Shown: positions 4,030 through 27,673, counted from the first letter of the stretch. The stretch is 64,000 nucleotides of DNA from an uncultured Planctomycetaceae bacterium (GCA_964428895.1 CAYRZU010000008.1:326-64325); one strand, 5' to 3'. The notes: generated by a model not told the origin, from the letters alone. Translations and numbers: made by a program.

Positions 4030-4048
4030 GATTGCCTCCTGCACGGGC

Positions 4049-6094
4049 CTATCGTTTGGCCCAGAGGGTAAAGCCGTCCGTGTAGCCGGTCAGGACGTCG
4101 TCGCCGCCGCCGGTGAGCCAGCCGGCGGAGGCCGTCTGGCCGACGATATGAACGCCGTTGAAGGTGTCGGGCACCACGCCATAGGCGTAGTCGGCGTCGG
4201 TTCCTCCCAGGAAGGAACTCCAACGGTGGGCCCCCATGGCGGAGAATCGCGCCACGAACCCGTCCGTGTCGCCGTTGTAGGTGGTGTCCCATCCGCCGGA
4301 GGTCCACCCGCCCAACCCGGTCTCGCCGACGACGTAGACATCGCCGCGGTTGTCCACGGTGATGGCGTGGCCGATGTCGTCCTGGGTCCCGCCAAGGTAG
4401 GTGCTCCACAGGTGCTGGCCGGTGGTCTTCATGGCGTAGACGAACCCATCCTTGGCGCCGTCATACGTCGTGTCCCATCCGCCGGAAATCCAGGAGTCCG
4501 AGAAGGTCTCTCCGGTAACGTAGATCTTGTTGTTGGCGCCGATGGCGACGGCGAAGGCTTGATCGCCGGCAGACCCTCCGATGAAGCGCGACCAGACGTG
4601 GCGTCCGCTGGCGGCGAACTTGGTCAGGAAACCGTCGGAATTGCCGCCTAAGGTGGTGTCCTTGCCCTTCTTGACCCAACCGGACGATTCAGTGTAGCCG
4701 CAGACCAGCGCGTCGCCGCGGCCGTCGACGGCAATTCCGTTGGCCCGTTCGATATTGGCTCCGCCGAGGTAACTGCCGCGGAGCGTCTTTCCGTTGACCC
4801 ACAGGCGGGCGTAGAAGCCGTCGCCGCCGCCGGCGTAGGTGGTGTCCGAGCCTTTGGTGATCCAGCCGGACGACCAGGTTTCCCCGGCGACGTGGATGGC
4901 TTCGTTGGCCGAGCAGGCGATGGCGTGAGTCTTGTCCCAGCCCGCCCCGCCGAGGTAGCAGCTCCAAACATGTGTGCCCGTTTGCCTCAGTCTGGCCACG
5001 AAGCCGTCCCAGCTACCGTTGTGGCTGTGGTCGCCCACCCCGCCGCTGGCCCACCCACCGGCATCGGTCCGGCCGGCAACATAGATCCTCCCGGCGTCGC
5101 TGACGGCGATGCCGAAGCCCGCGTCGTAGTCGCTGCCGCCGAGATACGTACTCCACAGGCGCGTGCCTTTGCGGGTGTATTTGATGACGAAGGCGTCGCC
5201 GTTGCCGCCGTAAGTGGTGTCGAAGCCGCCGATGGTCCAGCCGGGACTGCTGGTGTAGCCCGTGGTGTAGACGCACCTGTTGGCGTCCATGGTGGTGGCA
5301 AGGGCCGTCTCGAGCGTGATACCGCCGATGTAGGCGCCCCACTGGACGGCCGGGTCGATGACCAGGTCGACCGTCGGGTCGTACTCGCCCAGGGCAAAGC
5401 TCACCGCGCCGTCGGCGCCGATTGCGAACGCGCTGTCGACGGCCACGCGGACGCCGTCGATGTTCTGGTAGCTGACTGGGGCGTCGTCGATCAGTTCGCC
5501 TTCACCCAGATCGACGTGCAGCGCGCCGGCGTCGTCGAGATAGACATCCTCGGCGCCGTCGTAGCGGACGACGATGTCGCCCGGGTCGGCCCCGGCCGCG
5601 ACGTGGTATTCGTACTTGAGGTTGGCGGCGCCCCCGGAGACGAACAGATCGACGCCGTCGTAGAGACGTTCGTAGGTGATGGTGGCGAAGGCGCGCGCGC
5701 CGTCGATCCACCGGCTGCTGTCAGCGCCGACGTGGTAGTTGAATCGTCCGGGCGTTTGGTCCAGGCCGACCGGGGCGACCGCCGCGGCGCCGTCGAACCG
5801 CATGTTGACGGCCTCGGCCAGGAGGTCGGTCTCATTCGCGCCGGGTCGGAAACCCACGAAGCTCAGCCCTTCTTCGGTGAAGGCCACGTTGGCGTTGCCG
5901 GTTCGGTAGAGGTAGTGGATCTCGGAGTCCCACTGGCCCAGATTCTCCACGAAGTCGGCGGTCGTGGTCTGGAGCATCGGGACGGGCGTGGCCGCATCCA
6001 ACATTCGTCGGGGTTCGAGCGTTTCCAGGCAGGGGGTGCGATGGGGCCGGTTTCCCGATCCGTCCTGCCCGGCCCGGTGCTTGTGGATAAACAT
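4049..6094 (-). CDS. SBBP-repeat beta-propeller exoprotein, paralog 3
   Basis: 681 aa ORF, colinear with paralog 2; LETLEPRRMLD motif; ends FTLWAKR. Confidence 0.9.
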   Translation of the reverse strand: MFIHKHRAGQDGSGNRPHRTPCLETLEPRRMLDAATPVPMLQTTTADFVENLGQWDSEIHYLYRTGNANVAFTEEGLSFVGFRPGANETDLLAEAVNMRFDGAAAVAPVGLDQTPGRFNYHVGADSSRWIDGARAFATITYERLYDGVDLFVSGGAANLKYEYHVAAGADPGDIVVRYDGAEDVYLDDAGALHVDLGEGELIDDAPVSYQNIDGVRVAVDSAFAIGADGAVSFALGEYDPTVDLVIDPAVQWGAYIGGITLETALATTMDANRCVYTTGYTSSPGWTIGGFDTTYGGNGDAFVIKYTRKGTRLWSTYLGGSDYDAGFGIAVSDAGRIYVAGRTDAGGWASGGVGDHSHNGSWDGFVARLRQTGTHVWSCYLGGAGWDKTHAIACSANEAIHVAGETWSSGWITKGSDTTYAGGGDGFYARLWVNGKTLRGSYLGGANIERANGIAVDGRGDALVCGYTESSGWVKKGKDTTLGGNSDGFLTKFAASGRHVWSRFIGGSAGDQAFAVAIGANNKIYVTGETFSDSWISGGWDTTYDGAKDGFVYAMKTTGQHLWSTYLGGTQDDIGHAITVDNRGDVYVVGETGLGGWTSGGWDTTYNGDTDGFVARFSAMGAHRWSSFLGGTDADYAYGVVPDTFNGVHIVGQTASAGWLTGGGDDVLTGYTDGFTLWAKR
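5607..5821. repeat. 215-bp exact direct repeat, copy B
   Basis: Identical to 3557-3771. Confidence 0.9.
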
Positions 6095-14639: not shown

Positions 14640-16289
14640 CTACGCCAGCGCCGCGGCGATGTCTTCGGCCGGGGTGCTGACCGGGGCGAGGCCGAATTTT
14701 TCGACCAGCACATTCAGTACCGCCGGGCCGATGAAGGCCGGCAGGGACGGGCCGATCTTGATGTTCAGCACGCCCAGGTGCAGCAGCGTCAGCAGAATGC
14801 AGCAGGCCTTCTGCTCGTACCAGCTCAGCACCATCGTCAGCGGCAGGTCGTTGACGCCGCAGTCGAACGCGTCGGCCAGGGCCAAGGCGATCTGGATGGC
14901 CGAATAGGCGTCGTTGCACTGGCCGATGTCCAACAGCCGCGGAATGCCGCCGATGTCGCCGAAGTCCAACTTGTTGAAGCGGTACTTGCCGCACGCCAGC
15001 GTAAGGATGGCGCAATCGTCGGGAACGGCCTGGGCCAGCTCGGTGTAGTAATTGCGGCCGGGCTTGGCGCCGTCGCAACCGCCGATCAGGAAGAAGTGCT
15101 TCAACGCGCCGGCCTTGACGGCCTCGATGACCTTGCCGGCCACGCTCATCACGGTGTTGCGGGCGAAGCCGATGGTGATGGTCTGCGCAGCTTCGTCGCC
15201 CGCAAAGCCGTCCGCCGCCAACGCCGCGTCGATCACGGGCGAGAAGTCCTTCTTGCCGGATGCATCGGCGTCGATATGCGTCAGGCCGGGCCAACCGACC
15301 AGGCCGGTGGTGAAGATGTTGGCCGCGTAACTGTTCTTGGGCTTCTGGATGCAGTTGGTCGTCATCAGAATGGCGCCCGGGAACGCGGCGAACTCCTTGG
15401 CCTGGTCTTGCCACGCCCCGCCGTAGTTGCCGACCAGGTGGTCGAACTTCTTCAACTCGGGGTAGGCCAGCGCCGGCAGCATTTCGCCGTGGGTGTAAAC
15501 GTTCACGCCCTTGCCGGCGGTTTGTTCCAACAGCATCGCCAGGTCTTGCAGGTCGTGGCCGGAAACCAAAATGCACTTGCCCGCCACGGGCGTGACCCGC
15601 ACTTCGGTGGGCTCGGGATGGCCGAACGTGGAGGTGTTGCCCTCGTCCAGCAGGCCCATCACGGTGAAGTTGACCTCGCCGACCTTCAGCGCGCAGCCGA
15701 CCAGCGTGTCGACGTCGGTGGGGTCGTCGGCCAGGAAACTCAGGGCCTCGTGGAAGAAGCCGTACGCGGCGTCATCGTCTTGGCCGAGGATGTGGGCGTG
15801 GTCGGCGTAGGCGGCCGTGCCCTTGAGGCCGTAGAGCACCAACTCTTGCAGGCCGGCAACGTCGGCGCCGAACTTCTCGATGCGGTCGGCTTTGTTGAGG
15901 GCCTCGCCTTGGGCAACCAGGCCGGCCAGGTCCGCCGCGGGCGTCCACTGGGCCGGGCCGGTCAGTTCGTCGGACCCGCCGGCGGATTCATACAGCTTGC
16001 GGGCGGCGTCCTTGACGGCCGCGGCGCGATTCAGCCACGCCACCAGCGCGTCGGCATCAAAGTTGACGTTGGTGACCGTCACGAACAAGGCTTCCGTGAC
16101 AAACAGGTCGATCTGGCGATCGATGGCACCGGCCTGGCGGGCGCGATGCGCGTATTGGCTGATGCCCTCGCAGGCGAAGACCAGCAGGTCCTGCAGAGCG
16201 GCGACCTCGGGCTTCTTCCCGCAGACGCCGGACTTGGTGCAGCCGGTTCCGCCGGCGGTTTGTTCGCATTGGTAACAGAACATCGTCAT
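14640..16289 (-). CDS. hcp: Hybrid cluster protein (hydroxylamine reductase)
   Basis: MFCYQCEQTAGGTGCTKSGVCGK, SGHDL, YTHGEMLP, GGCDG, LACGKYRFN, GQCNDAYSA and SWYEQKA. Confidence 0.97.
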   Translation of the reverse strand: MTMFCYQCEQTAGGTGCTKSGVCGKKPEVAALQDLLVFACEGISQYAHRARQAGAIDRQIDLFVTEALFVTVTNVNFDADALVAWLNRAAAVKDAARKLYESAGGSDELTGPAQWTPAADLAGLVAQGEALNKADRIEKFGADVAGLQELVLYGLKGTAAYADHAHILGQDDDAAYGFFHEALSFLADDPTDVDTLVGCALKVGEVNFTVMGLLDEGNTSTFGHPEPTEVRVTPVAGKCILVSGHDLQDLAMLLEQTAGKGVNVYTHGEMLPALAYPELKKFDHLVGNYGGAWQDQAKEFAAFPGAILMTTNCIQKPKNSYAANIFTTGLVGWPGLTHIDADASGKKDFSPVIDAALAADGFAGDEAAQTITIGFARNTVMSVAGKVIEAVKAGALKHFFLIGGCDGAKPGRNYYTELAQAVPDDCAILTLACGKYRFNKLDFGDIGGIPRLLDIGQCNDAYSAIQIALALADAFDCGVNDLPLTMVLSWYEQKACCILLTLLHLGVLNIKIGPSLPAFIGPAVLNVLVEKFGLAPVSTPAEDIAAALA

Positions 16290-16310: not shown

Positions 16311-16568
16311 TTAGGCCGCTTTGGTCAGCATGTCGGTGTTGCAGCAGCGGGGGGTGAAGGTGTCGGCCCTGTTCTTGCCGCTGCGGATCAGTCCAATCTC
16401 GGCCCCGCACACGGGGCATCTGTAGAAACTCACGGTTTGGGGTTGGGCGACCATGGCGGTGTTGCAGCAGCGCGGGACGAACTCGCCGTGGGTGGCCACG
16501 AGAATCGTGATCTCGGCCCCGCAAACGCCGCAGCGGCAGACCAGCCCTGCACTGGCGATGCCGGTCAT
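16311..16568 (-). CDS. Tandem desulforedoxin-like (CxxC...CC) x2 small protein
   Basis: MTGIASAGLVCRCGVCG...PRCCNTAM...YRCPVCG...PRCCNTDM; start overlaps the upstream gene's stop. Confidence 0.7.
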   Translation of the reverse strand: MTGIASAGLVCRCGVCGAEITILVATHGEFVPRCCNTAMVAQPQTVSFYRCPVCGAEIGLIRSGKNRADTFTPRCCNTDMLTKAA

Positions 16569-16768
16569 GATGTCTCCTCCGGCGCCTGGACCAATTCCAT
16601 GGCCTTGCCGCAGCAGCGCAGGTCCATGATGCCCAGGCCCCCGCGGGTGACCATCACCACGTTGCCGCACTCGCGGCAGACGTAGGTGCTGCCGACGTGG
16701 ATGGTCAGGGCCTGCTCCCAGTCGTCGAGGTCCCATTCCGGCGGGGAGTGTTCGGGTTGCTTGCTCAT
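16565..16768 (-). CDS. Desulforedoxin-like small protein
   Basis: YVCRECGNVVMVTRGGLGIMDLRCCGKAM matches the desulforedoxin pattern; AGGAG RBS. Confidence 0.75.
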   Translation of the reverse strand: MSKQPEHSPPEWDLDDWEQALTIHVGSTYVCRECGNVVMVTRGGLGIMDLRCCGKAMELVQAPEETS

Positions 16769-16859
16769 CGCGGGTGCTCCTGCGGCGCACGCGCGCAAAC
16801 CGCCGCGGCGCCTTCGGCGGGGTGTAAGAAGAAATGCCCACTCAGCCTGGTGGCCGGTG

Positions 16860-17048
16860 TTAGTCGTCGATTTCGATCGCGGAGGTGGGGCAGGTTTCGG
16901 CGGCCTCGCGGCAGGCGTCGGCCAGCTCGTCGGGCACGTCCGATATCTTGGCGACAGCCACCCCGTCGTCGCTCAGGTCGAACAGGTCCGGGCAGATGTC
17001 GATGCAGAGGCCACAACCGGTGCAGGCGTCGGATACGGTCACCTTCAT
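16860..17048 (-). CDS. Single-cluster ferredoxin
   Basis: CTGCGLCIDICPDLF...AAETCPTSAI; AAGGAG RBS. Confidence 0.92.
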   Translation of the reverse strand: MKVTVSDACTGCGLCIDICPDLFDLSDDGVAVAKISDVPDELADACREAAETCPTSAIEIDD

Positions 17049-17099
17049 GGTCGCTCTCCTTGGTCGCCGCCAGGGGGCGGGCGTTGTCGATTCGTCCGT

Positions 17100-17861
17100 T
17101 CATCCTGCCACCGAGACCCCGTTGATGTCCAGCATTTCACCGGCCACGCTGAGCGTAATTATGGTTACCGGAACCGACGTTCCGGCCGCCTCCAACGCCT
17201 TCCGGACGATCATATCCAATCCGCAGCAGGGGACCTCCATCCGGGCGATGGTGATTGAGGCGACGGTGTTGGCTGCGAAGATGCGGCTGAGCTTTTCGAC
17301 GTAGGCTTCGGCGTCATCCAGCTTCGGACAGGCGATGGCCAGCGTTCGGCCGGCCAGCAGCCGCGAGTGGAAGTCCCCCATGGCAAACGCGGCGCAGTCG
17401 GCGGCGATTAGGACGTCGGCCCCGTCCCACAGGTCTGTCTCAGCCGGCAGCAGCGTCAGTTGCACCGGCCATTGTTCCAGACGGCTGGGCGAGGGCCCCG
17501 CCGCCGGGGCCGCGGCGTCACCGCCTTGCAGCTTGCGGAGCATCGAGCCCGGACAGCCTTTCTTGGGCGCCCCGGCCGTCGCGGACGGACAGCCCGTCGG
17601 CTCGGCGGGCGCCGCCTCGGCCAGATGCTGCTCGACGGCGGCCTCATCGAACGCCTCAGCCTCACGCAGTTCGATGGTGATCGCATCCTTGGGGCAAACG
17701 CCCAGGCAGTTGCCCAGCCCGTCGCAGAGATTATCCGCCGACAGGACGGCCTTGCCATCGATCAGTTCGATAGCGCCCTCGGCACAACTGGGGATGCACA
17801 GGCCGCACCCGTCGCATTTGTCGGGGTCAATGTGAACGATCTCGCGAGCTTTGCCAGCCAT
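17100..17861 (-). CDS. 4Fe-4S dicluster protein of the hcp-associated (FrdX-like) type
   Basis: CDGCGLCIPSCAEGAI, CDGLGNCLGVCP, GCPGS, QWPVQL, IAADC, ACPKLD and MEVPCC. Confidence 0.85.
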   Translation of the reverse strand: MAGKAREIVHIDPDKCDGCGLCIPSCAEGAIELIDGKAVLSADNLCDGLGNCLGVCPKDAITIELREAEAFDEAAVEQHLAEAAPAEPTGCPSATAGAPKKGCPGSMLRKLQGGDAAAPAAGPSPSRLEQWPVQLTLLPAETDLWDGADVLIAADCAAFAMGDFHSRLLAGRTLAIACPKLDDAEAYVEKLSRIFAANTVASITIARMEVPCCGLDMIVRKALEAAGTSVPVTIITLSVAGEMLDINGVSVAG

Positions 17862-17921
17862 CGGTGCGGTCTCCCGTGTTCGTTGAAGCTCCCACCATTA
17901 TTGCCAGCAACCCTACCGACC

Positions 17922-17941
17922 ACCTTGATACAAGTCAAGGT
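17922..17941. promoter_or_regulatory. Crp/Fnr-family (FNR/Dnr/HcpR-type) operator
   Basis: ACCTTGATACAAGTCAAGGT contains TTGAT-N4-GTCAA within a 7-bp-arm palindrome, about 60 bp upstream of the first gene of the hcp cluster. Confidence 0.75.
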
Positions 17942-18152
17942 TGGCCAACTTTTCTAGGTTATTGTTGTTCAGGCTCTTCGGACGGTCCTGGCGGGGCGGG
18001 GACTTGACGGCGGCGAATGGGTCTGTTAAGTTCAGTGGGTCGCGGGGTTGTTCATCTCTTCACGCCCAGGGGCGCGCATGCCCCCGTACTCGGTCTATCA
18101 AGGCAGTCGTACGCATTCTCTGCCGAGGGAGTCGATTGGGAGGTACCACGTC

Positions 18153-19748
18153 ATGGCACGTTTCGTCTTTGGTGATGAGGCCGCAGAATGGGATGATCTT
18201 CTTCCGGAGTGTTACATTCCCGGCACGTCGGCGGACAAGTCGATTCTGGTCGGTCGGTGGGGCACGGGGAAGTCGGCTATCCTTCTCAGTCATGCCCGAC
18301 AGCTTTGTGAGTTGCTCGATGAACCTACCACTCCGCCGCCGTTTTGGTACATCCGAGAGGAAGCCTTTGACGTGCGAGGTCTGTTGGCGCTTCGGCAGGA
18401 ACACGAAGGTGATCGACAGTTGTTCATCACCGCGCTGGAGGAAGTGTGGAAGGCCGAGCTACTCCGGACGGCGTGCGCCGTTCTCAACCGTCTTCGCGAT
18501 CCCATCGACGGGTGCGACGGGAAGCACTGGGATGTGGTGACCGCGATCGCCAAGAAGGGCGCATTGCGGCGGTCTCTCTGGAAGCAACTGCCTGATATCA
18601 TCGCATTGATCTTCGGGCGGCAACGGGGTGAGTCGTTGCGAGGCGTTCAACGAGAGGTGGAGAACGTCTTCCTGGACACCACCTTCCCCAATGTACAGCA
18701 GTGCCTTACGGACCTGGCCGCCAAGGACATACGCCCGGTCATCTGTATCGAGCCCATCGAGACACCCACTGGGGCCCTGGAGGAGAAGGTTGGCCTGGCC
18801 CAAGGGATCGTCACCTCGCTGCTAAATGTCTTTCAGAGCACGTTCCGCCCGCATTCGACCCAACTGCTGGACGTGCGTGTGGCCATTCCGTGGCATCGGT
18901 ATGATCGCGACACGCTGAACTTCCCTCAGAAGCTGGAGGAGTTCCGGGGAGATATCTACTGGGACGAAGAGGCCCTTAAGGACTTCATCAATCGCCGCAT
19001 TACGTGGGAATTCAAGCGGGTCGGCCGAAAGGTATCGTCCGGGTCGGACGCATGGAAGCAGTTGTTCGAACCCCGGGTCCGCAACGATCACTGTGAGGGA
19101 GCGATTCAAGAGGATTCCTTCGCGTACGTTCTGCGCCATACCCATTACCGTGCCCGTGACATTCAGAAGTTCGCCCGGCTGTGCGTGGAAGGCTATGCGG
19201 CCGAGAAAGAAATCCAGCGGGACGATGTACTGCGCGGGCGGAACGGTCTCAAAGTCAGCCAGAGTTGCATTCGCAAGGTGGTCCGGGAGGAATCCCAGAA
19301 CATGGCGACGCTGCTGAGAACGGAGGGTTGGAGGCGGTACTCGGCCTTGCCCAGGATCCTGGATGAGTTGCAGGGCATGGCGGTGCCCTTTTCCCTCAAG
19401 CAGCTTGATCAACGCCTGGCGGACATGGCCGACGTCGATGTCAACATTGCCCTGAGCATCCTGTGGCGGTGCGGCGTGGTCGGTGTTTTCATTCGCCCGA
19501 AGGATCAAAAGCATGTGAAGCAGCTTCAGGATGACTTCGGACTCGACGGTTTTCGTCAGTACCAAATTGCTGGCGGGCAGAAGGTACAGGGGTGGTCCCT
19601 GTTCGCTTACTCGTGGACGGGGCGCCCGGGGGAACTGCTGACCCGATATGCGGATTCCGATGCCGGGGGCGCCAAACTGATCCTTCACCCCCAGCTCTTC
19701 GAGTACTTGGCCGCGCACCCCGAACGAGGCATGCCCATGGGCGCGTAG
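18153..19748 (+). CDS. P-loop ATPase, Sll1717/FunZ-like family
   Basis: GGGAGG RBS; N-terminal FGDEAAEWD; Walker A GRWGTGKS; RHTHYRARD (RPRD-like); wHTH-like LSILWRCGVVG; C-terminal LHPQLFEYL. Confidence 0.75.
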   Translation: MARFVFGDEAAEWDDLLPECYIPGTSADKSILVGRWGTGKSAILLSHARQLCELLDEPTTPPPFWYIREEAFDVRGLLALRQEHEGDRQLFITALEEVWKAELLRTACAVLNRLRDPIDGCDGKHWDVVTAIAKKGALRRSLWKQLPDIIALIFGRQRGESLRGVQREVENVFLDTTFPNVQQCLTDLAAKDIRPVICIEPIETPTGALEEKVGLAQGIVTSLLNVFQSTFRPHSTQLLDVRVAIPWHRYDRDTLNFPQKLEEFRGDIYWDEEALKDFINRRITWEFKRVGRKVSSGSDAWKQLFEPRVRNDHCEGAIQEDSFAYVLRHTHYRARDIQKFARLCVEGYAAEKEIQRDDVLRGRNGLKVSQSCIRKVVREESQNMATLLRTEGWRRYSALPRILDELQGMAVPFSLKQLDQRLADMADVDVNIALSILWRCGVVGVFIRPKDQKHVKQLQDDFGLDGFRQYQIAGGQKVQGWSLFAYSWTGRPGELLTRYADSDAGGAKLILHPQLFEYLAAHPERGMPMGA

Positions 19749-19797
19749 GGAGCGGGTGGAGAGAGAACGGACAATATCCTTGCAGGAGAGGTGACAC

Positions 19798-21585
19798 ATG
19801 ACGGACGAAGGCTTTGCCATACGGTGTCCATTTTGCTTTGAATGGTCGGAATGGCGCAAACACCCCAGCACCATAGCGGTCAGCGACAGGGCCGAGATGA
19901 AAGACCTCCTGAGCCAGTGCCAAGGCGACCACCCGGTGTCGCCGGACTCCAAGATCCTCCGATGCAAACGCCCGTTCTGGGTCTGTCCAGGGCCGTTCGA
20001 GGCGTTCGTCTGCAACACCGAAGATGACGCCTTCGAGTTCATCGAGATGGCCGACGCGTGGTCCATCAAACGGGACTTCCGGCTATACAAGCTGGATCGA
20101 ACCCAGCGCTGGGAGGGCCAGTACTACGGCATTCTCTTCTCGATTCGACCGGTCCCGAGACAAAGACACATTGAACTGGAGCGGCTGATCGACCCACAGC
20201 TTCTCTCGTGCACACTCAGCGGCATTGCCGAAGAGATCAGAGCGCCCGTGACGATCTACGCCGCAAGCTCCTATCTCTCTCCCGACGGCACGGAAGTCGC
20301 CTGGCTGCCGATCGAGAGCTACCAGCCTCGAAAGCGATTCGTCCCCCCTCGATACAATCCCATCTGCGAGCTGTTAAGAGGCGAGGCCTTGAGCCCGGTG
20401 CTCAATGAGTTCCACAACATCACCCAAGAGAACTGCCCTCAAGAGCTGGGCTGCAAGGGCGCCTGCGGGGGGAGGCTGTGTGTGCCGTGCCTCAGCCGCG
20501 AGTGGAACCACTGTCCCGCCTTTCTGATGGAACGGAGGAAGCGGGGTCTCTGCTATTCGCACGATATGGAGATGATTGATCGACTCATACAGACCTGGGG
20601 GGAAGACACCCGATGTCCGCAGCCCATCCAGGAATCCTGTTGGGCCGGCTTCACTGAGGTGGCGATTCCCATTGTTGTGCATGACCTGCTGGTTGGCGTG
20701 GCGATGACGGGGCAGTTCGTCATCGATCCCGACGAGGTCGCTCTCGGGGACAACATCGTCGACCGCTTGCCGGGACTGGATTACAGCCGCGAGAAACTTG
20801 AGCGATTCATCGAGGTCGCTCGCGGGCGAGCGCCCAGGGATGATGACGAACGACGCTTGGCCGATTTTGTGGTCTCAACTGAGGACGTCGATGAGAAGGT
20901 TGACGTCATCGTCAATCACGGCAAGCAGCTTGCGCAAACAGCGACGGCCCGGTATCGAGACCTCCGGTTGAGATCGGAGTCTCTATTCAAACAGGAGCTG
21001 CTCGGCCGAATCAACGACGGTGCTGACGAACCAGCCGCTATCGATGAGAAGCTCCTGGAACTGCTCGGACGCATGCGGGAGTACTGGGGATTTGAGGCGG
21101 TGTACCTACTCCTGTCCCCCAAAGAGGAGCCCAGGGTCCACGCCATCGCCTTTTCCGGGACGACCACGGAAACGTACTTCGGGTTTAACACGAAAGCGGC
21201 TGGGAGGATCGAACAGGACTATCGGCAGGACTACCCAAGTCCACTGATCATCGATTTCTCGAAGCTACGGACGCCGACCGGCAAGTATGCCAAGGACTTA
21301 CAGACCGTCCTCATGAACGCTCGAATGGACCCGGACCTGTGCTTGCCGACCGATGGTCGCTTCTACTTCTGCGCCTTAGTGCCGATGAGGCAGTGCCTAG
21401 CCGGCTTGGTCTTCGCCGGGCGACAGCAAGGGGCCGTCAGCCCCCTCAAGCATCGCGTTGAGGGAGGGATCAGCGATCTCTGTCAGGAGGTCATCTTTGA
21501 TACCAGTATCCAGATTATCCGGCGCCTAGAGGAGGTCTACGGCCCGTACTTGGGCGTCCCAGTGCCCGGGGCGGCCTCGGCTTAG
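19798..21585 (+). CDS. Cys-rich PocR-domain sensory protein with C-terminal GAF-like region
   Basis: GAGG RBS; PocR motifs LERLIDPQLL, PICELLR, CYSHD and CWAGFTEVAIPIVVHDLLVGVAMTGQF; N-terminal CPFC...C..C. Confidence 0.7.
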   Translation: MTDEGFAIRCPFCFEWSEWRKHPSTIAVSDRAEMKDLLSQCQGDHPVSPDSKILRCKRPFWVCPGPFEAFVCNTEDDAFEFIEMADAWSIKRDFRLYKLDRTQRWEGQYYGILFSIRPVPRQRHIELERLIDPQLLSCTLSGIAEEIRAPVTIYAASSYLSPDGTEVAWLPIESYQPRKRFVPPRYNPICELLRGEALSPVLNEFHNITQENCPQELGCKGACGGRLCVPCLSREWNHCPAFLMERRKRGLCYSHDMEMIDRLIQTWGEDTRCPQPIQESCWAGFTEVAIPIVVHDLLVGVAMTGQFVIDPDEVALGDNIVDRLPGLDYSREKLERFIEVARGRAPRDDDERRLADFVVSTEDVDEKVDVIVNHGKQLAQTATARYRDLRLRSESLFKQELLGRINDGADEPAAIDEKLLELLGRMREYWGFEAVYLLLSPKEEPRVHAIAFSGTTTETYFGFNTKAAGRIEQDYRQDYPSPLIIDFSKLRTPTGKYAKDLQTVLMNARMDPDLCLPTDGRFYFCALVPMRQCLAGLVFAGRQQGAVSPLKHRVEGGISDLCQEVIFDTSIQIIRRLEEVYGPYLGVPVPGAASA

Positions 21586-21710
21586 CGGGCCCTACGCATG
21601 AAGGTCAGCCGGCCGCCGAACAAAAGGGGACGACGCTTGTGCGAAGGGAGTCGGTATACCCAGGTCGGTCGAGGAACTGATCCGCGAAATGCTCCTTCCC
21701 CCTTCTTGCT

Positions 21711-22400
21711 TTAGCGGCTCTGGTAGAGCTCTTGCAGGGCCGGAACGTCGAGCAGGGCGATGCGGGGGCCGTCGACCTCGATGAGGCCTTGGTCGGCGAG
21801 CGTCTTGAGGGCGCGGCTGAGGGTCTCGGGGGCCGCGGCAATTCGGGCGGCGAGTTGGCGCTTGGTTTGGCTCAGCTCGAAGGTGAAGGCCCCGGCGGCG
21901 TCGGCCTCCGCCAGCAATACGCCGGCCAGGCGGGCGGGCACGTCCTTGAGTGACAGGTCGTCAATCAGGTCGGCGAACTCCTGGAGCTTGCGACTCATGC
22001 CCAGCAGCATGCCGGCCGCCAGAGCGGGGTCTTTGGCGAGGGCGGCCTCGACGGCGCGGCGGGGGACGGCCAGCAGGGCGCAATCGCTGACGGCCTCGGC
22101 GGCGGCGGGGTAGTGGCCGCCGGCCCAGAAGGCGGCCTCGGCGAAGGTCTTGCCCGGGCCGTAGAGGTGGAGGATCTGCTCGTCGCCCTTGGGCGAAACG
22201 CGGAAGACCTTAACCTGACCCGAAAGGATCAGGAAGAACGCGTCGGCCTCGGCGCCCTCGGCGAAGATGCGCTGCCCGGCGCGACACTCGCGCACGTTGC
22301 AGGCCGCGGCCAGGTCGGCCAGGACCCGTTCATCCAAGGCCGAGAAGGCCGGCACGGTCTTGATCGCGGCGGCAAGTGCAGCCTTGTCCATGGGCGTCAT
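21711..22400 (-). CDS. Crp/Fnr-family transcriptional regulator (HcpR/Dnr-like)
   Basis: cNMP-binding fold (GQVKVFRVSPKGDEQIL, FAEAA..YPAAAEA); HTH LAARIAAAPETLSRAL; no FNR N-terminal Cys cluster. Confidence 0.88.
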   Translation of the reverse strand: MTPMDKAALAAAIKTVPAFSALDERVLADLAAACNVRECRAGQRIFAEGAEADAFFLILSGQVKVFRVSPKGDEQILHLYGPGKTFAEAAFWAGGHYPAAAEAVSDCALLAVPRRAVEAALAKDPALAAGMLLGMSRKLQEFADLIDDLSLKDVPARLAGVLLAEADAAGAFTFELSQTKRQLAARIAAAPETLSRALKTLADQGLIEVDGPRIALLDVPALQELYQSR

Positions 22401-22410
22401 TATACAGGCG

Positions 22411-24240
22411 CTAGCTCTTGAAGGCTTTGGTCGCCCTAAACGGCGCGGCGATGGTGACGCCCTCGGCCAACGCTTCCAGTTGCGGGATGTCGGCTACGGT
22501 CAGCAGGTCGGGCACGAACATGGCCTGATGGTGGATGTATTCGGTCTCGCGCTCGTAGAGGCCCACGAGCGACAGATAGTAGCCGACCTCGGCGCGGATG
22601 TCGGAAAACAGGCCCGGCTCCATGGCGGCCGCCATCAGGGCCATGAAGCCCTGCGGGAACCCGCCGGTAACCAGGCGCACCTTGGGGGCCCCGGCGAGCT
22701 TCTTGGCCCAACGGGCCAGGGCGATTGTTTGGGCGACCTGCTCGCCCAGGATGCGTCGCCCGGCGGCGTCCATCAGCATCAGCCATTGGTGCTCGGCCGA
22801 CGAGCAACCGAAGCCGAGCAAATCGGTGGTGACCACGGTGCGGTCGTCGGCCATCTCGCGGTGCACGTCGGCCAGGTCGCCCCAGGTGGAAAAGACCAGG
22901 TCGACGGTCTTGGTCTTGGCGTTGGTGTCGACCGCCACAGGCAGCGTCCACGGGCCGACGCGGAACTGATAGAGATCGGCGCCGTCGTGTCGGCCGACCT
23001 TGGTGGCCTTGCCGACGTAGCGCGGCAGGCGGATCAGCTCTTTGACCTTCTTGCGCAGGGAGGCCTTTTGGGCTTTGGTGGTGGGGGTGCGGAGCTTGGC
23101 GGCGGTTTCGCGAGCGGTTCGGGCGGCGACGGTCATCATCGACGACTGATTCAGCGGCAGGCCCACGAACAGCTCGCGTTCGGTGAAGATCTCATCGTCG
23201 GTGTGCAGGTCCTCGAGGCCGAACGCCATGCCGAATTGCTCGCCCAGGAACTTGTAGAGCTGGCCGCGGCTGTCAGCTTCGTAGTTGTGCGTGCCGGGGT
23301 CGGTGTTGTTGTAGAAAACGAAGTCGGCGCCCATGGCCTCGAAGGTCGGCCTCACGGCGTCGACCACGAGGGGCTTGGTGCGATCGGTGCGGAAGCAGCA
23401 TTCGTCGCGGTCGTTCATGATCGACAGCGTCGGCCGTGGGGCGAGCATGGCGGTCATGGTGTCGAAGTCCAGCACCGTGCCCATGTCCGGGGGAACTTGT
23501 TCCAAGTCGCCGACCTCGCCGGGGCTAAACAAGCGCCCGCGAATGGTGGTATAGCCGGCCACGGGGATCACGTGGGTGATGCGGGTATCGAGCGACGAAA
23601 AGACAATGGTCTGCCAGCCGCCACCGGATAGGCCCGTCATGGCGACGCGCTTCTTGTCGGCGTTGGGGTGGGCCAGTAGCACGTCCAGGCCCTTGGCCAT
23701 GTTCAGGAAGTACATACCCACGCCGCCGAGGCCGGCGAGTTCCAGGAACGCGATGCGGTTGTGGTCGCGATCCTTGGTCAGTTCGCTCATGCCGGCGAAC
23801 TCGAAATTGAAGGCCAGCATCCCCCGGCGGGCGAGGTTGGCGCAGCGGGCCTGTTTGTAGTCGGTGGCCTTGCCGCCATCGTGGTGGCCGTTGGCGTTGA
23901 AGACGACCGGGACCTTGCCGGTGAGCTTCTTGGGCTGATAGAGCAAGGCGGGCACCCAGTAATCGGGCAGCACTTCGTAGCGCAGCTTGCGGATGACGTA
24001 GGGGGCGCCTTTAGGCTTGAGCACATCTCCCCAGACCACGGTGGGCTTGGCGCGGACAATCTTTTCCGGCCAGTTGCGGAGGTAGATCTTCTTGAGCGCG
24101 TCGCGGCGAATTGCCTCGGCCTGGGCGGGCCACGCGTGGGCGTCCGTGGGCGCCTTGAACTTCGGCAGGAGGCTATCGATGAAAGCGACGAGTTGCTCGT
24201 CGGTCGATTTCGAGAGAGGGATGTTCTGAAGAATGCCCAT
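22411..24240 (-). CDS. Alpha/beta hydrolase (acetyl xylan esterase-like)
   Basis: NANGH, nucleophile motif TGLSGGG, MLAPRP and GTHNY. Confidence 0.75.
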   Translation of the reverse strand: MGILQNIPLSKSTDEQLVAFIDSLLPKFKAPTDAHAWPAQAEAIRRDALKKIYLRNWPEKIVRAKPTVVWGDVLKPKGAPYVIRKLRYEVLPDYWVPALLYQPKKLTGKVPVVFNANGHHDGGKATDYKQARCANLARRGMLAFNFEFAGMSELTKDRDHNRIAFLELAGLGGVGMYFLNMAKGLDVLLAHPNADKKRVAMTGLSGGGWQTIVFSSLDTRITHVIPVAGYTTIRGRLFSPGEVGDLEQVPPDMGTVLDFDTMTAMLAPRPTLSIMNDRDECCFRTDRTKPLVVDAVRPTFEAMGADFVFYNNTDPGTHNYEADSRGQLYKFLGEQFGMAFGLEDLHTDDEIFTERELFVGLPLNQSSMMTVAARTARETAAKLRTPTTKAQKASLRKKVKELIRLPRYVGKATKVGRHDGADLYQFRVGPWTLPVAVDTNAKTKTVDLVFSTWGDLADVHREMADDRTVVTTDLLGFGCSSAEHQWLMLMDAAGRRILGEQVAQTIALARWAKKLAGAPKVRLVTGGFPQGFMALMAAAMEPGLFSDIRAEVGYYLSLVGLYERETEYIHHQAMFVPDLLTVADIPQLEALAEGVTIAAPFRATKAFKS

Positions 24241-24421: not shown

Positions 24422-24452
24422 TTTGTGGTCCGGCGGACAGGAGCCCGGATCG

Positions 24453-24887
24453 ATGGCGCCTCTGAAATCAGCCAAACTGACAGCCAGCCTGGAAGACTAC
24501 CTGGAGGCGATCTTCCAGATCGTCCAGGACAAGCAGGCGGTCCGCGCCAAGGACATCGGCGAACGGCTGGAGGTGGGGCGGTCGTCGGTGACCGGGGCGC
24601 TGCACGCCCTGGCGGACCGGGGGCTGATCAACTACGCCCCCTACGACGTGATCACCCTGACGGCCAAGGGGTCGTCGGTGGCCAAGCAGATCGTCCGGCG
24701 CCATGAGGCGTTGCAGGACTTCTTCGTGAAGGTGCTGTCGGTCGACGCCGAGGCGGCTGAGGCGGCCGCCTGCAAGATGGAGCACGCGGTGTCGGAGGAA
24801 GTGCTGGAGCGGTTCGTGGAGTTCGTGGAATACGTGGACAACAGCCCGCCCGACGTGGCCAAGCGGATTCGTCGTTTCGGCCGATAG
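24453..24887 (+). CDS. DtxR/MntR-family metal-dependent repressor
   Basis: LTASLEDYLEAI, SSVTGAL, RRHEAL and ACKMEHAVS. Confidence 0.92.
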   Translation: MAPLKSAKLTASLEDYLEAIFQIVQDKQAVRAKDIGERLEVGRSSVTGALHALADRGLINYAPYDVITLTAKGSSVAKQIVRRHEALQDFFVKVLSVDAEAAEAAACKMEHAVSEEVLERFVEFVEYVDNSPPDVAKRIRRFGR

Positions 24888-24908
24888 CGGCCCGACCGGG
24901 AACAACCC

Positions 24909-25169
24909 ATGATGCAAGCCGACGACAAGCAAGAGACGGCCCTGACGCTCAAGTCGCTCAAGCCGGGCGAGCGCGGGGCCATCGTGAAGATTTCCGGTGG
25001 CGGGAGCATTCGGCGGCGCTTGCTGGACATGGGCGCCACCGCCGGGACGGAAGTGAAAGTCGAACGGGTCGCGCCGCTGGGCGATCCGATTGAGATCAAG
25101 ATCAAGGGCTACAACCTGACGCTCCGGAAGGAAGAGGCCGAACGCATTTCGGTAACGCCTCTGTCCTGA
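24909..25169 (+). CDS. feoA: Ferrous iron transport protein A
   Basis: RRRLLDMG...VERVAPLGDPIEIKIKGYNLTLRKEEA. Confidence 0.93.
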   Translation: MMQADDKQETALTLKSLKPGERGAIVKISGGGSIRRRLLDMGATAGTEVKVERVAPLGDPIEIKIKGYNLTLRKEEAERISVTPLS

Positions 25170-25188
25170 CCTTCGCCATGGACGACCG

Positions 25189-25440
25189 ATGCCCCCCCCC
25201 CTTGTCCCATTGAATGACGTCGATGCCAGGCAGCGCGTTCGGATTTCGCAGATCCAGGGCGGGCACGACTTGACGGCGCGCCTCTGCGCGATGGGTCTGA
25301 CGCCGGGCGCGTCGGTGGATGTAATTGCCACCGGCGGCGGGCCGATGATTCTGGACGTGCTGGGCAGTCGGCTGATGCTGGGGCGTGGCATGGCGGCGAA
25401 GGTGCTGGTGCGTGTGACCGGCGAGGCGCCGGACAAATAG
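25189..25440 (+). CDS. feoA: Ferrous iron transport protein A (second copy)
   Basis: RLCAMGLTPG...GPMILDV.GSRLMLGRGMAAKVLV; start uncertain because of a C10 tract. Confidence 0.88.
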   Translation: MPPPLVPLNDVDARQRVRISQIQGGHDLTARLCAMGLTPGASVDVIATGGGPMILDVLGSRLMLGRGMAAKVLVRVTGEAPDK

Positions 25441-25465
25441 ACAACCGTTTGTTTTTTTCGGAAGG

Positions 25466-27673
25466 ATGTTCGGCATGCCGAACTTTTCAAATCAGGACGG
25501 GACGACGCCCGGGCCGATCACGGTCGCGCTGGCGGGCAACCCCAACTCGGGCAAGACCACGGTCTTCAACGCCCTGACCGGCGCCCGTCAGCACGTGGGC
25601 AACTACCCCGGCGTGACGGTGGAGAAGAAGGAAGGCACGTGCCGCCACGATGGGCTTGAGATGAAGATCGTTGACCTGCCGGGCACGTACAGCCTGACGG
25701 CCTACTCCATCGAGGAACTGGTGGCGCGGGACTTCATCATCGGGGAGGGCCCGGACGTGGTGGTCGACATCATCGACGCCTCGAACATTGAGCGGAACCT
25801 GTACCTGGCCGTCCAGATCATGGAGTTGGGGGCGCCGCTGGTGTTGGCGTTCAACATGTCCGACGTGGCCGAGCGCCGCGGTCTGCAATTCGACCTGCCG
25901 CTGTTGGAGCAACTGCTCGGCGCGAGAATCGTGCCGATGGTGGGCAACCGGGGCATCGGCCGCGAGGAGTTGCTCGATGCGGCCGTCGAGATCGCCCAAT
26001 CCGGCGTGTGCAGTCAGCCCAGCCGTATCGACTACGGCGAGGAGATCGAGGAAGAGCTAGCCACGCTGACCCAACTGATCTGCCAATCCGATACCGCGCC
26101 GATCGGCGCGCCGAATCGCTGGGTGGCGCTAAAGCTGCTGGAAGGCGACACCGAACTTCACGAGCAGATTCACGATCCGGCCTTGCTGGCCGCAGCCGAG
26201 CGGTCGGTCCAGCACCTGGAGAACGTCTTGGGCGACACGCCCGAGGCCCTGATTGCCGACCGCCGGTACGGCTTCATTTCCGGGGCGTGCCAGGAAACGG
26301 TCCGCAGTACGGTCGAGAGTCGTCACAGCCGATCCGATCGCATCGACTCGGTGGTCACCAATCGCATGCTGGGGTTGCCGATCTTCGCGCTGCTGATGTT
26401 CGCGGTGTTCCAGTTGACCTTCACGCTGGGCGCCCCGCCGATGGGGTGGATCGAAGCCGGCTTTGAGTGGTTGGCCGGGACGATTAACGGGTGGTGGCCG
26501 GCCCAGTCCGACAGCCTGCTGCGGAGCCTGCTGGTCGACGGCATCATTGGCGGCGTGGGCGGGGTGGTGGTCTTCCTGCCGAACATTCTGCTGCTGTTCC
26601 TGGCGATTGCGATCTTGGAGGACAGCGGCTACATGGCGCGGGCCGCCTTCATTATGGATCGCCTGATGCACAAGATCGGCCTGCACGGCAAGAGCTTCGT
26701 GCCGATGCTGATCGGCTTTGGCTGTTCCGTCCCGGCCATCATGGCCACCCGCACGCTGGAGAGCCGGAAGGACCGGCTGACCACCATGCTGGTCGTGCCG
26801 CTGATGAGTTGCGGGGCGCGATTGCCCATCTACATTCTGATTATCGCGGCGTTCTTTCCCGAGAAGGCCCTGTTCAGCGTGTTCGGCATGGAGGTGACTA
26901 CCCACGCGATGTGGATGATGCTGATCTACGTAATCGGCATGGTGCTGGCGATCTTTTGCGCCAAGCTGCTCAAGGCCACGGTCCTGCGCGGGGAAACGCC
27001 GCCGTTCGTAATGGAACTGCCTCCCTATCGCATGCCGACGGTCAAGTCCGTTAGCGTTCACATGTGGAACCGCGGGGGGATGTACCTCAAGAAGGCCGGC
27101 ACGATCATCCTGGGCATTTCGATTCTGCTCTGGGCGATGCAACAGTGGCCGGGCCTGCCGACCGACCAAGCGGGGCGGTTTGAGAACCAGCGCGCCATGA
27201 TCGAGGCCCGGCCGGCCGATCACCCCGAAGCCAAGGAGTTGCTACTGGCGAACGTTGATCACGCCGAGGCCGAGGCGGCGTTGAAGCAGTCGCTGATGGG
27301 ACGGGTGGGGCACGGCCTGGCGCCGGTCCTTCGGCCTTGCGGATTCGACTGGAAGATTTCGACGGCCATGATCGGCGCGTTCGCGGCTAAGGAGGTGTTC
27401 GTGGCGCAAATGGGCATTGTCTACTCGCTGGGCGAGGGCGCCGATGAGCGGTCCGAGCCCCTTCGAACCAAGCTGCAGGCCAATTACACGCCGCTGCAGG
27501 GATTCTGCATCATGTTGTTCTGCCTGATCAGCGCGCCGTGCATGGCCACCATCGCCATCACCCGGCGGGAGAGCAACTCCTGGCGGTGGGCGCTGTTCCA
27601 ACTGGGGGGGCTGACCGTGTTGGCGTGGATTCTGACCACGGCCGTCTATCAGATCGGCCGGCTGTTCGCTTAG
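25466..27673 (+). CDS. feoB: Ferrous iron transport protein B
   Basis: GNPNSGKT, VGNYPGVTVE, DLPGTYSL, NMSD; membrane domain with GFGCSVPA and MSCGARLP. Confidence 0.97.
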   Translation: MFGMPNFSNQDGTTPGPITVALAGNPNSGKTTVFNALTGARQHVGNYPGVTVEKKEGTCRHDGLEMKIVDLPGTYSLTAYSIEELVARDFIIGEGPDVVVDIIDASNIERNLYLAVQIMELGAPLVLAFNMSDVAERRGLQFDLPLLEQLLGARIVPMVGNRGIGREELLDAAVEIAQSGVCSQPSRIDYGEEIEEELATLTQLICQSDTAPIGAPNRWVALKLLEGDTELHEQIHDPALLAAAERSVQHLENVLGDTPEALIADRRYGFISGACQETVRSTVESRHSRSDRIDSVVTNRMLGLPIFALLMFAVFQLTFTLGAPPMGWIEAGFEWLAGTINGWWPAQSDSLLRSLLVDGIIGGVGGVVVFLPNILLLFLAIAILEDSGYMARAAFIMDRLMHKIGLHGKSFVPMLIGFGCSVPAIMATRTLESRKDRLTTMLVVPLMSCGARLPIYILIIAAFFPEKALFSVFGMEVTTHAMWMMLIYVIGMVLAIFCAKLLKATVLRGETPPFVMELPPYRMPTVKSVSVHMWNRGGMYLKKAGTIILGISILLWAMQQWPGLPTDQAGRFENQRAMIEARPADHPEAKELLLANVDHAEAEAALKQSLMGRVGHGLAPVLRPCGFDWKISTAMIGAFAAKEVFVAQMGIVYSLGEGADERSEPLRTKLQANYTPLQGFCIMLFCLISAPCMATIAITRRESNSWRWALFQLGGLTVLAWILTTAVYQIGRLFA
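25468..25483. promoter_or_regulatory. Perfect 16-bp palindrome GTTCGGCATGCCGAAC (candidate DtxR-family operator)
   Basis: Perfect inverted repeat over the feoB start; near-identical site upstream of the DtxR gene. Confidence 0.6.

Follow-up and report, generated by a model that had tools for sequence, protein, structure and literature searches.

The closest described precedent for the working principle discussed here is NifL, a non-phosphorylating protein derived from a histidine kinase which, according to PMC12998190, controls the separate AAA+ DNA-binding protein NifA by stoichiometric contact. By sequence, comparison can be made with the canonical PocR-GAF histidine kinases of Planctomycetota and Verrucomicrobiota and with stand-alone P-loop ATPases of the Sll1717 family (NCBIfam NF047389) from Bowmanella, Shewanella and Pseudoprimorskyibacter, and by fold with the archaeal proteins SSO1545, PABY2304 and Orc1/Cdc6. 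Here, we compare with these systems a pair of genes at positions 18153-21585 of a 64,000-nucleotide stretch from an uncultured Planctomycetaceae bacterium (GCA_964428895.1 CAYRZU010000008.1:326-64325; this whole stretch is called the window below), in which a gene for an Sll1717-family ATPase (gene 1) is followed by a gene for a PocR-GAF sensor lacking a kinase (gene 2). Our reading is that the pair is a horizontally mobile two-gene cassette, in which the kinase-less sensor is coupled to the ATPase, and we would put its probability at roughly 0.6. The genes are laid out as follows:

18138-18143, plus strand: GGGAGG, resembling a ribosome-binding site, 9 nt ahead of the ATG of gene 1
18153-19748, plus strand: gene 1, encoding 531 amino acids (P0001), from the open reading frame (ORF) listing and translation
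19749-19797, plus strand: intergenic gap of 49 bp between gene 1 and gene 2, holding the ribosome-binding site AGGAGAGG
19784-19791, plus strand: AGGAGAGG, resembling a ribosome-binding site, 6 nt ahead of the ATG of gene 2
19798-21585, plus strand: gene 2, encoding the kinase-less sensor of 595 amino acids (P0002), from the ORF listing and translation

Two plus-strand genes 49 bp apart, each with a ribosome-binding site, is also how a preliminary description, made from the sequence alone, had pictured the locus, and the coordinates and sites agree with it. A site scan found no terminator-like site in the 49-bp gap, a promoter scan gave 0 sigma-70-like sites, and the two genes may well be co-transcribed.

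The arrangement recurs elsewhere. In G412, a genome of the same family and another genus, contig C61 ends within a gene 1 homolog (41% identity), which is followed after 53 bp by a gene for a 618-residue kinase-less homolog of gene 2 (39% identity); this pair lies at 8387-11427 of L024 (contig C61), its neighbours being a heparinase II/III-like gene and a long ORF with a peroxidase domain. In the metagenomic locus L028 (45% GC), a gene 1 homolog (37% identity) and a 578-residue kinase-less gene 2 homolog (33% identity) are separated by 33 bp, and the neighbours encode PTS-EIIA, Usp and V-type ATPase subunits. The flanks therefore differ for each pair: hcp/hcpR in the window, heparinase-like and peroxidase genes in G412, PTS-EIIA/Usp/V-ATPase in L028. 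In G412, GC is 0.59 and 0.56 in the two genes of the pair but 0.717 over the remaining 8.4 kb of that stretch, and the pair looks foreign there as well. Homologs of the two genes that never co-occur, which the preliminary description had named as evidence against a common system, are not what is found: adjacent pairs in the same order and 33-53 bp apart stand in G412 and L028, in two unrelated contexts. Furthermore, P0004, from the clade of gene 1, and P0086, from the clade of gene 2, are each recorded on one Joint Genome Institute (JGI) contig of 8445 bp; probably it is the same contig, which would make them a fourth pair.

The trees point in the same direction. In a 60-row tree of gene 1, the three paired ATPases group with P0003 at a support of 84 (83 with P0004 added), the ATPases of L028 and G412 are sisters at 96, and the paired group includes none of the 11 ATPases whose loci lack gene 2. 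Distribution of both families is sparse: among 61 genomes of near relatives, gene 2 has relatives in four and gene 1 in one, the window's own; in a class sample of 401 genomes, the family of gene 2 occurs in six and that of gene 1 in three (G000, G412 and, as a weak partial match, G334); a phylum sample of 400 other genomes gave only five weak partial paralogs of gene 1. Clade-specific genome scans revealed nothing beyond G412 and the known loci.

That the pair was acquired at this locus had been proposed before, and comparison with G001, a genome of the same genus, bears this out. G001 contains homologs of the flanking Fer4 (64% identity) and Crp/Fnr (64%) genes on one contig, only 270-290 bp apart; tblastx and blastn alignments are collinear on both sides, with no counterpart of window positions 17863-21711. 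Since conservation with G001 covers a Crp/Fnr-type box at 17922-17941 and continues for about 45 bp past it, the extra DNA begins near 17990:

17990-21650, plus strand: DNA extra in comparison with G001 (approximate extent, the ends not set to the base)

Contigs assembled per run (X2, 16800-22900; X1, 16800-22037; from runs that may be the source samples) cross both junctions without a single difference, so that the junctions are not an artefact of binning. Codon usage had been described, qualitatively, as less GC-biased at third positions (GC3) than in the flanks, and this can now be given in numbers: GC3 is 0.726 in gene 1 and 0.747 in gene 2, compared with 0.795-0.895 in six flanking genes of at least 230 codons; three shorter neighbouring ORFs have values of 0.70-0.82. 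The overall GC content, 0.596 in both genes, ranks at the 1.7th percentile among 1572 long ORFs of the genome (mean 0.644, standard deviation 0.023), a reference set compiled mechanically and including spurious frames. An ancestral pair with host-like codon usage is thus contradicted both by its absence between the same flanking genes in G001 and by its low GC. No integrase or transposase gene was found in the insert, and among the short imperfect matches across the region none is conspicuous as a direct or inverted repeat flanking the insert.

The protein encoded by gene 2 is made up of the following parts, all of them recognisable in its kinase relatives:

19798-20172, plus strand: N-terminal domain (residues 1-125) with CPxC (C10, C13) and C56/C63 (C-x6-C)
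20179-20877, plus strand: PocR/PAS-GAF-like domain (residues ~128-360), PF10114, with tandem-GAF alignments from residue 119/128
20878-21555, plus strand: helical spine (361-430), GAF domain (~431-559) and C-terminal helix (560-586), from VIA-align and the alignment

The Pfam family PF10114 (PocR) is matched just above its cut-off (25.8 bits against 23.9) over just 37 residues (275-311); in the paired sensors of L028 and G412 the same family scores 41.4 and 40.2 bits over longer stretches. A Pfam search for kinase (HisKA, HATPase_c), GGDEF, HTH and GAF families found none of them in gene 2. In the structural model (predicted local distance difference test, pLDDT, 88.5), residues ~389-586 match many GAF domains in VIA-align (Z 11.7-11.2, root-mean-square deviation (rmsd) 3.0-4.0 Å, 141-164 residues), 3k2n among them (Z 11.7, rmsd 3.8 Å, 162 residues); the best single-domain match is the GAF domain of a sigma-54 regulator. 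Foldseek gives 23 matches at E <= 1e-3, with phytochrome PAS-GAF-PHY and PDE6 tandem-GAF structures at E 2.6e-5. Hence, the earlier assignment of a PocR domain and a GAF-like tail without kinase, GGDEF or HTH stands, based on the PF10114 match and the GAF fold of residues ~389-586. The N-terminal domain is probably a zinc ribbon, which would bind metal through its four cysteines: in an alignment of 14 sequences, C56 and C63 never vary, and conservation of C10 and C13 is at least 90%. The PocR domain carries a Cys-rich insert (C190, C213, C223, C231, C239, C252, C281), and in 37 sequences 11 cysteines of gene 2, namely C10, C13, C56, C63 and the seven of the insert, are invariant or at least 90% conserved; such conservation would be consistent with binding of a metal or cluster.

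Where this sensor comes from can be read from its relatives. The homologs of gene 2 (n = 33) are mostly proteins of 777-841 residues with HATPase_c, the whole range of the kinases reaching to about 850; gene 2 aligns with them over about 580 residues and stops just ahead of the 'SHRIGN' H-box, and the counterpart of its C-terminal helix runs on, in the kinases, into the H-box of the DHp domain. The canonical PocR-GAF kinases of Planctomycetota and Verrucomicrobiota share with gene 2 the whole 580-residue sensor at 34-40% identity, that is, the zinc ribbon, the Cys-rich PocR domain, the spine and the GAF domain, but they carry DHp and HATPase_c and are followed by a receiver gene, whereas gene 2 ends before the H-box and has the ATPase gene upstream. 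A receiver-domain gene stands after the kinase in four of four loci examined (G019, G083, G001, L047; one receiver below the Pfam cut-off), and the ATPase is absent from the kinase loci G019, G083, G001, L047, L045, L048 and L049. Gene 2 as an ordinary two-component histidine kinase was considered and rejected: it has neither HisKA nor HATPase_c and ends before the H-box of its relatives.

An exhaustive profile search with gene 2 gave 174 representatives at E <= 1e-3, of which 106 reach E <= 1e-30, and the top matches include P0084, P0085 and P0086, proteins of 574-585 residues. In a 50-row tree of the sensor columns only (13 new profile matches included, the fragment P0080 left out), the sensors of 574-618 residues form one clade of seven, nested among the kinases with a support of 97 in the Shimodaira-Hasegawa-like approximate likelihood ratio test (SH-aLRT): P0002, P0050, P0084, P0085, P0086 and the proteins of L028 and G412, which are 33-65% identical and have about the same end point. 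A 37-row tree had recovered the kinase-less sensors as a clade of four with a support of 99. The kinase-less partner sensors have a single origin inside the histidine-kinase family.

Kinase-less relatives also occur in other parts of the tree. At least two further lineages, of 617-652 and 680-710 residues and with short tails, comprise P0070, P0073, P0075, P0094, P0097, P0102, P0104 and P0106. P0090 (691 residues) has a weak DUF5678 match in its tail, and the receiver beside the L047 kinase ends in DUF5678. In P0105 (981 residues), likewise kinase-less, the sensor part has its nearest relatives in the second kinase-less clade (P0070/P0073/P0075) and is preceded by a calcineurin-like metallophosphoesterase (Metallophos, residues 7-282), the alternative partner thus again being placed on the N-terminal (upstream) side of the sensor. 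A fusion of sensor and ATPase was not found: among the 150 matches listed, the sole long N-terminal extension, that of P0105, is Metallophos. Loci of further kinase-less sensors are:

L050, 3980-5911: kinase-less sensor gene
L052 (= G387), 3995-6037: kinase-less sensor gene
L077, 3980-6112: kinase-less sensor gene

Turning to gene 1, its recognisable motifs and domains are:

Residues 6-14, plus strand: FGDEAAEWD, from the translation
18252-18275, plus strand: Walker A GRWGTGKS, residues 34-41, canonical
18738-18755, plus strand: Walker B-like strand VICIE-P, residues 196-201 (model strand 196-200), with the single acidic residue E200
19134-19160, plus strand: RHTHYRARD, residues 328-336, arginine-rich motif opening the lid helix
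Residues ~1-400: predicted AAA+ core and lid, from the model
Residues ~400-531: predicted winged-helix/beta C-terminal domain, from the model

Gene 1 scores 112 bits with the NF047389 model, whose cut-off is 75 (residues 6-451 aligned to positions 1-422 of the 454 in the model), and the paired ATPases of L028 (90.2 bits) and G412 (77.0 bits, a partial protein) exceed this cut-off too; Pfam families, Sigma54_activat included, were not found in gene 1. A word-indexed search (7999 candidates scored) gave 47 homologous proteins at E <= 1e-3, the closest non-self one at 43% identity; they span 293-575 residues, are mostly 530-550 residues long, and none carries an extra domain. Few of their sources are named (Bowmanella, Shewanella, Pseudoprimorskyibacter, Meiothermus, Grimontia). 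Neighbouring clusters of the ESM Atlas bear the same family name, with minorities annotated as PF24389 ORC-CDC6-like (21%, one cluster), nSTAND1 (13%) and NPHP3_N (10-18%). Five residues of the Walker A motif (G34, W36, G37, G39, K40) do not vary among 16 sequences, and conservation of each is at least 90% when 47 are aligned. All 47 sequences share E200 and P201, which follow the third strand, as well as P246 of a PWHR motif, of which W247, H248 and R249 are at least 90% conserved. The same degree of conservation applies to R328, H329, R333 and R335 of the RHTHxRxRD motif, which may act as a sensor-2/Arg finger. All three motifs first noticed in this protein (FGDEAAEWD, GRWGTGKS, RHTHYRARD) are thus present, but the word 'degenerate' that accompanied them has to be withdrawn: because the Walker A motif is canonical and every family-conserved residue is kept, gene 1 is a normal member of its family, and the single-acid Walker B, its E-P invariant in all 47 homologs, is a trait of the Sll1717 family as a whole.

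The AlphaFold model of gene 1 (pLDDT 91.7, predicted template modelling score 0.90) has no Foldseek match at E <= 1e-3, the best being HslU at 2.1e-3, followed by weak matches to other AAA+ proteins (ORC, Orc1/Cdc6, RuvB, BrxC, McrB). VIA-align places 2fna first (Z 11.2; 314 residues, model 3-520) and 2qen second (Z 11.0), with further matches to the NLR NB-ARC module of WRR4A, ORC and Orc1/Cdc6 (Z 10-11) and to TnsC, all at Z values that are middling for this tool. The archaeal SSO1545 (2fna), PABY2304 (2qen) and Orc1/Cdc6 (Z 11.2, 11.0 and 10.3; 314-324 residues, model 2-522) match almost the entire model best and combine an AAA+ core with a winged-helix C-terminus, as is predicted for gene 1, but the identity is only 11-13% at an rmsd of 4.9-6.8 Å, and their Pfam models miss gene 1. 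With moderate confidence, the fold can be predicted to be that of an ORC/Cdc6/STAND-like AAA+ ATPase with a winged-helix C-terminus. A STAND NTPase in the strict sense was rejected as a candidate: the protein ends after the winged-helix/beta domain at residue 531, without a fused C-terminal sensor or repeat domain.

Based on these data, the cassette may be envisaged as follows. Gene 2 would be a tandem sensor of the dimeric type (zinc ribbon, Cys-rich PocR, helical spine, GAF), descending from the histidine-kinase family seen in records of Planctomycetota and Verrucomicrobiota, in which the DHp/HATPase transmitter would have been lost once, in the ancestor of a small clade. The cassette would likewise have formed once, by coupling of this sensor to an otherwise stand-alone ATPase, and would then have moved between genomes. 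The sensor may bind a small ligand, or read redox state or metal via its conserved cysteines; it would then gate the nucleotide state or the oligomerisation of the ATPase by protein contact and not by phosphotransfer, and the winged-helix domain of the ATPase would act on DNA, whether to regulate or to serve in conflict. Contact-based control of the ATPase, with the winged helix as the DNA-facing output, is the most economical mechanism and the most likely working model, and the ATPase would be the output which the sensor is missing. A complex prediction with gene 1 (1-531) and gene 2 (127-586; the N-terminal 126 residues omitted) scored 0.00 and gives no answer either way. More tentatively still, and at odds somewhat worse than even, we suggest that this represents a new type of signalling wiring, in which a sensor has dropped phosphotransfer and controls an ORC/Cdc6/STAND-like AAA+ winged-helix ATPase by contact.

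It is in this working principle only that the pair resembles NifL-NifA: adjacent genes for a kinase-derived sensor and a separate AAA+ ATPase (PMC12998190). NifL, however, keeps the DH and GHKL domains and holds NifA with them, according to the same source, and gene 2 has neither; NifA is a sigma-54 activator, whereas gene 1 has no Sigma54_activat match and a predicted ORC/Cdc6/STAND-like fold; the gene order is reversed, and the protein contact is a supposition in the case of the window pair. An anti-activator pair of the NifL-NifA type was consequently rejected, neither DH and GHKL nor a sigma-54 AAA+ domain being found by Pfam.

Several observations weigh against a coupled cassette and should be set out together. 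Scanning metagenomes with the alignment of gene 1 gave 17 loci, only one of which (L028) has a gene 2 homolog, although of the 16 others only about five have at least 1 kb downstream (about six of all 17). In genomes of other phyla, a gene 2 relative is absent within 6 kb of the gene 1 homolog in each of 13 loci (two of which had less than 100 bp downstream), and these loci have no conserved neighbour in common. The stand-alone NF047389 ATPases of Bowmanella, Shewanella and Pseudoprimorskyibacter are alike in length and motifs to gene 1 (35-37% identity, above the cut-off), and differ in precisely this lack of a nearby gene 2 homolog and of a conserved neighbour. Since most gene 1 homologs stand alone, the ATPase would be a self-sufficient unit to which the sensor was added. 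No ATPase is found near the other kinase-less sensors (0 of three loci: L050, L052/G387, L077), which have no common neighbour either. Only three adjacent pairs have been seen directly, two of them within one bacterial family; the support for the paired-ATPase group is modest (83-84), and the trees of gene 1 and gene 2 show only partial agreement. Gene 2 has a relative at 65% identity in P0050, but the best relative of gene 1 that was found reaches only 43-44%, so that no ATPase corresponding to P0050 was found. Finally, the run look-up listed no RNA runs carrying the stretch.

It is from these observations that the strongest competing explanation draws, according to which the two genes are unlinked passengers of a small island, an independent ATPase with a kinase-less sensor riding alongside. 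The gene 1 homologs that stand alone in 13 of 13 genome loci without a conserved neighbour, and the other kinase-less sensor clades that occur without the ATPase, fit such an explanation. Yet order, strand and a spacing of 33-53 bp have been kept at 33-41% protein identity in three contexts, and the partners form single clades in both trees; we consider mere passengers unlikely.

The position of the pair invites a second explanation, for which the neighbouring genes have to be introduced:

14640-16289, minus strand: hcp/Prismane (Prismane family, 558 bits)
16311-16700, minus strand: desulforedoxin-like ORF
17100-17861, minus strand: Fer4 (4Fe-4S) protein
17922-17941, no strand assigned: Crp/Fnr-type box ACCTTGA-N6-TCAAGGT, a perfect 7-bp inverted repeat (context, outside the module)
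21711-22400, minus strand: Crp/Fnr regulator, hcpR-like gene
22411-24240, minus strand: esterase-like gene

Every neighbouring gene reads on the minus strand, opposite to the pair, as had been reported, and the pair does lie between the Crp/Fnr regulator and the supposed operator at 17922, where an inverted repeat (17922-17941) was found that is conserved in G001. The box stands upstream of the divergent Fer4/hcp operon, and is a good candidate for the site of the HcpR-like regulator; in G001 (L064, 5922-5941), the arms are identical and the 20-mer differs by two changes in the spacer. Farther away, positions 24423-27673 (plus strand) hold a DtxR-like regulator ORF, two feoA-like ORFs and feoB, named from their translations without a family search. 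Five DNA runs from two studies contain the stretch, and three of the five may be its source.

In this setting, the pair could have been added locally to the hcp/hcpR regulon of nitrosative stress, with a Cys/metal sensor that reports nitric oxide or redox state to an ATPase-winged-helix regulator. This would be analogous to regulators of GAF-AAA+-HTH composition, NorR being an example. Besides the location, with the Crp/Fnr box of the hcp operon on one side and the gene of the regulator on the other, and the orientation divergent from the operon, the seven conserved sensor cysteines outside the zinc ribbon speak for it, as does the GAF domain of a sigma-54 regulator as best single-domain fold match. 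G001, however, has the same locus without the pair, the other two pairs stand in unrelated contexts, and gene 1 matches neither Sigma54_activat nor any other Pfam family, which leaves a role in this regulon improbable.

We regard as similarly improbable that the cassette serves anti-phage or anti-plasmid defence, with an ORC/STAND-like NTPase triggered via a separate sensor, although its patchy distribution and horizontal acquisition would suit such a role and the fold matches include NLR NB-ARC, TnsC, BrxC and McrB. One stand-alone homolog, L007 from a metagenome-assembled genome of Pseudomonadales, is flanked by two other NTPase genes. These lie on either side (L007 4406-5581 and 7646-8935) in a setting like a variable island; one is an AAA_14/DUF4143 protein, the other matches KAP_NTPase just above the cut-off, with AAA_16, nSTAND1 and NACHT below it. 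The other stand-alone homologs have ordinary neighbours, however. PADLOC-DB 2.0 gives 0 families for gene 1, and its sole match to gene 2, Cas11b at E 0.061, is at chance level; viral contigs yielded relatives of neither gene, phage and plasmid records yielded none for gene 1, and no nuclease or other effector domain was recognised. The defence role considered in the preliminary description thus finds no backing in these searches.

That gene 2 might be the remnant of a decaying PocR-GAF histidine kinase, its transmitter deleted during a rearrangement, is very improbable: its homologs are indeed mostly kinases of 810-850 residues, P0002 stops just ahead of the H-box and P0077 (628 residues) resembles a kinase cut shortly past it, but seven intact proteins of 574-618 residues and 33-65% identity end at about the same point within one clade, the conserved residues are kept (the 11 cysteines among them), and no kinase leftover is present, only 125 bp separating the stop codon of gene 2 from the next gene, so that the truncated kinase fragment feared earlier turns out to be kinase-derived, yet a conserved lineage.

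Returning to the coupled cassette, the term 'Sll1717' occurs in none of about 8.4 million full texts searched, and searches on FunZ ATPases, on PocR kinases in Planctomycetes and on ORC-CDC6-like defence listed no paper that by title and abstract concerns the pair. The pair would be an AAA+ switch under the control of a sensor, a new combination of parts whose novelty rests on three directly seen pairs, and the data suggest a module for signalling or conflict with a wiring that is as yet undescribed. The system is rare, confined to a handful of lineages in metagenomes, and its importance is conceptual rather than ecological. For the evolution of two-component systems, it offers a natural experiment, in which one sensor module of 580 residues is combined with at least four back ends: a kinase plus receiver gene, an upstream ATPase, an N-terminal metallophosphoesterase fusion and short tails. 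For the uncharacterised Sll1717 family, the sensor partner provides a handle on what these ATPases respond to and do; if the proposed coupling is true, it would be the first known input for the family, and the Sll1717 proteins would be ATP-driven DNA-binding switches, regulatory or immune.

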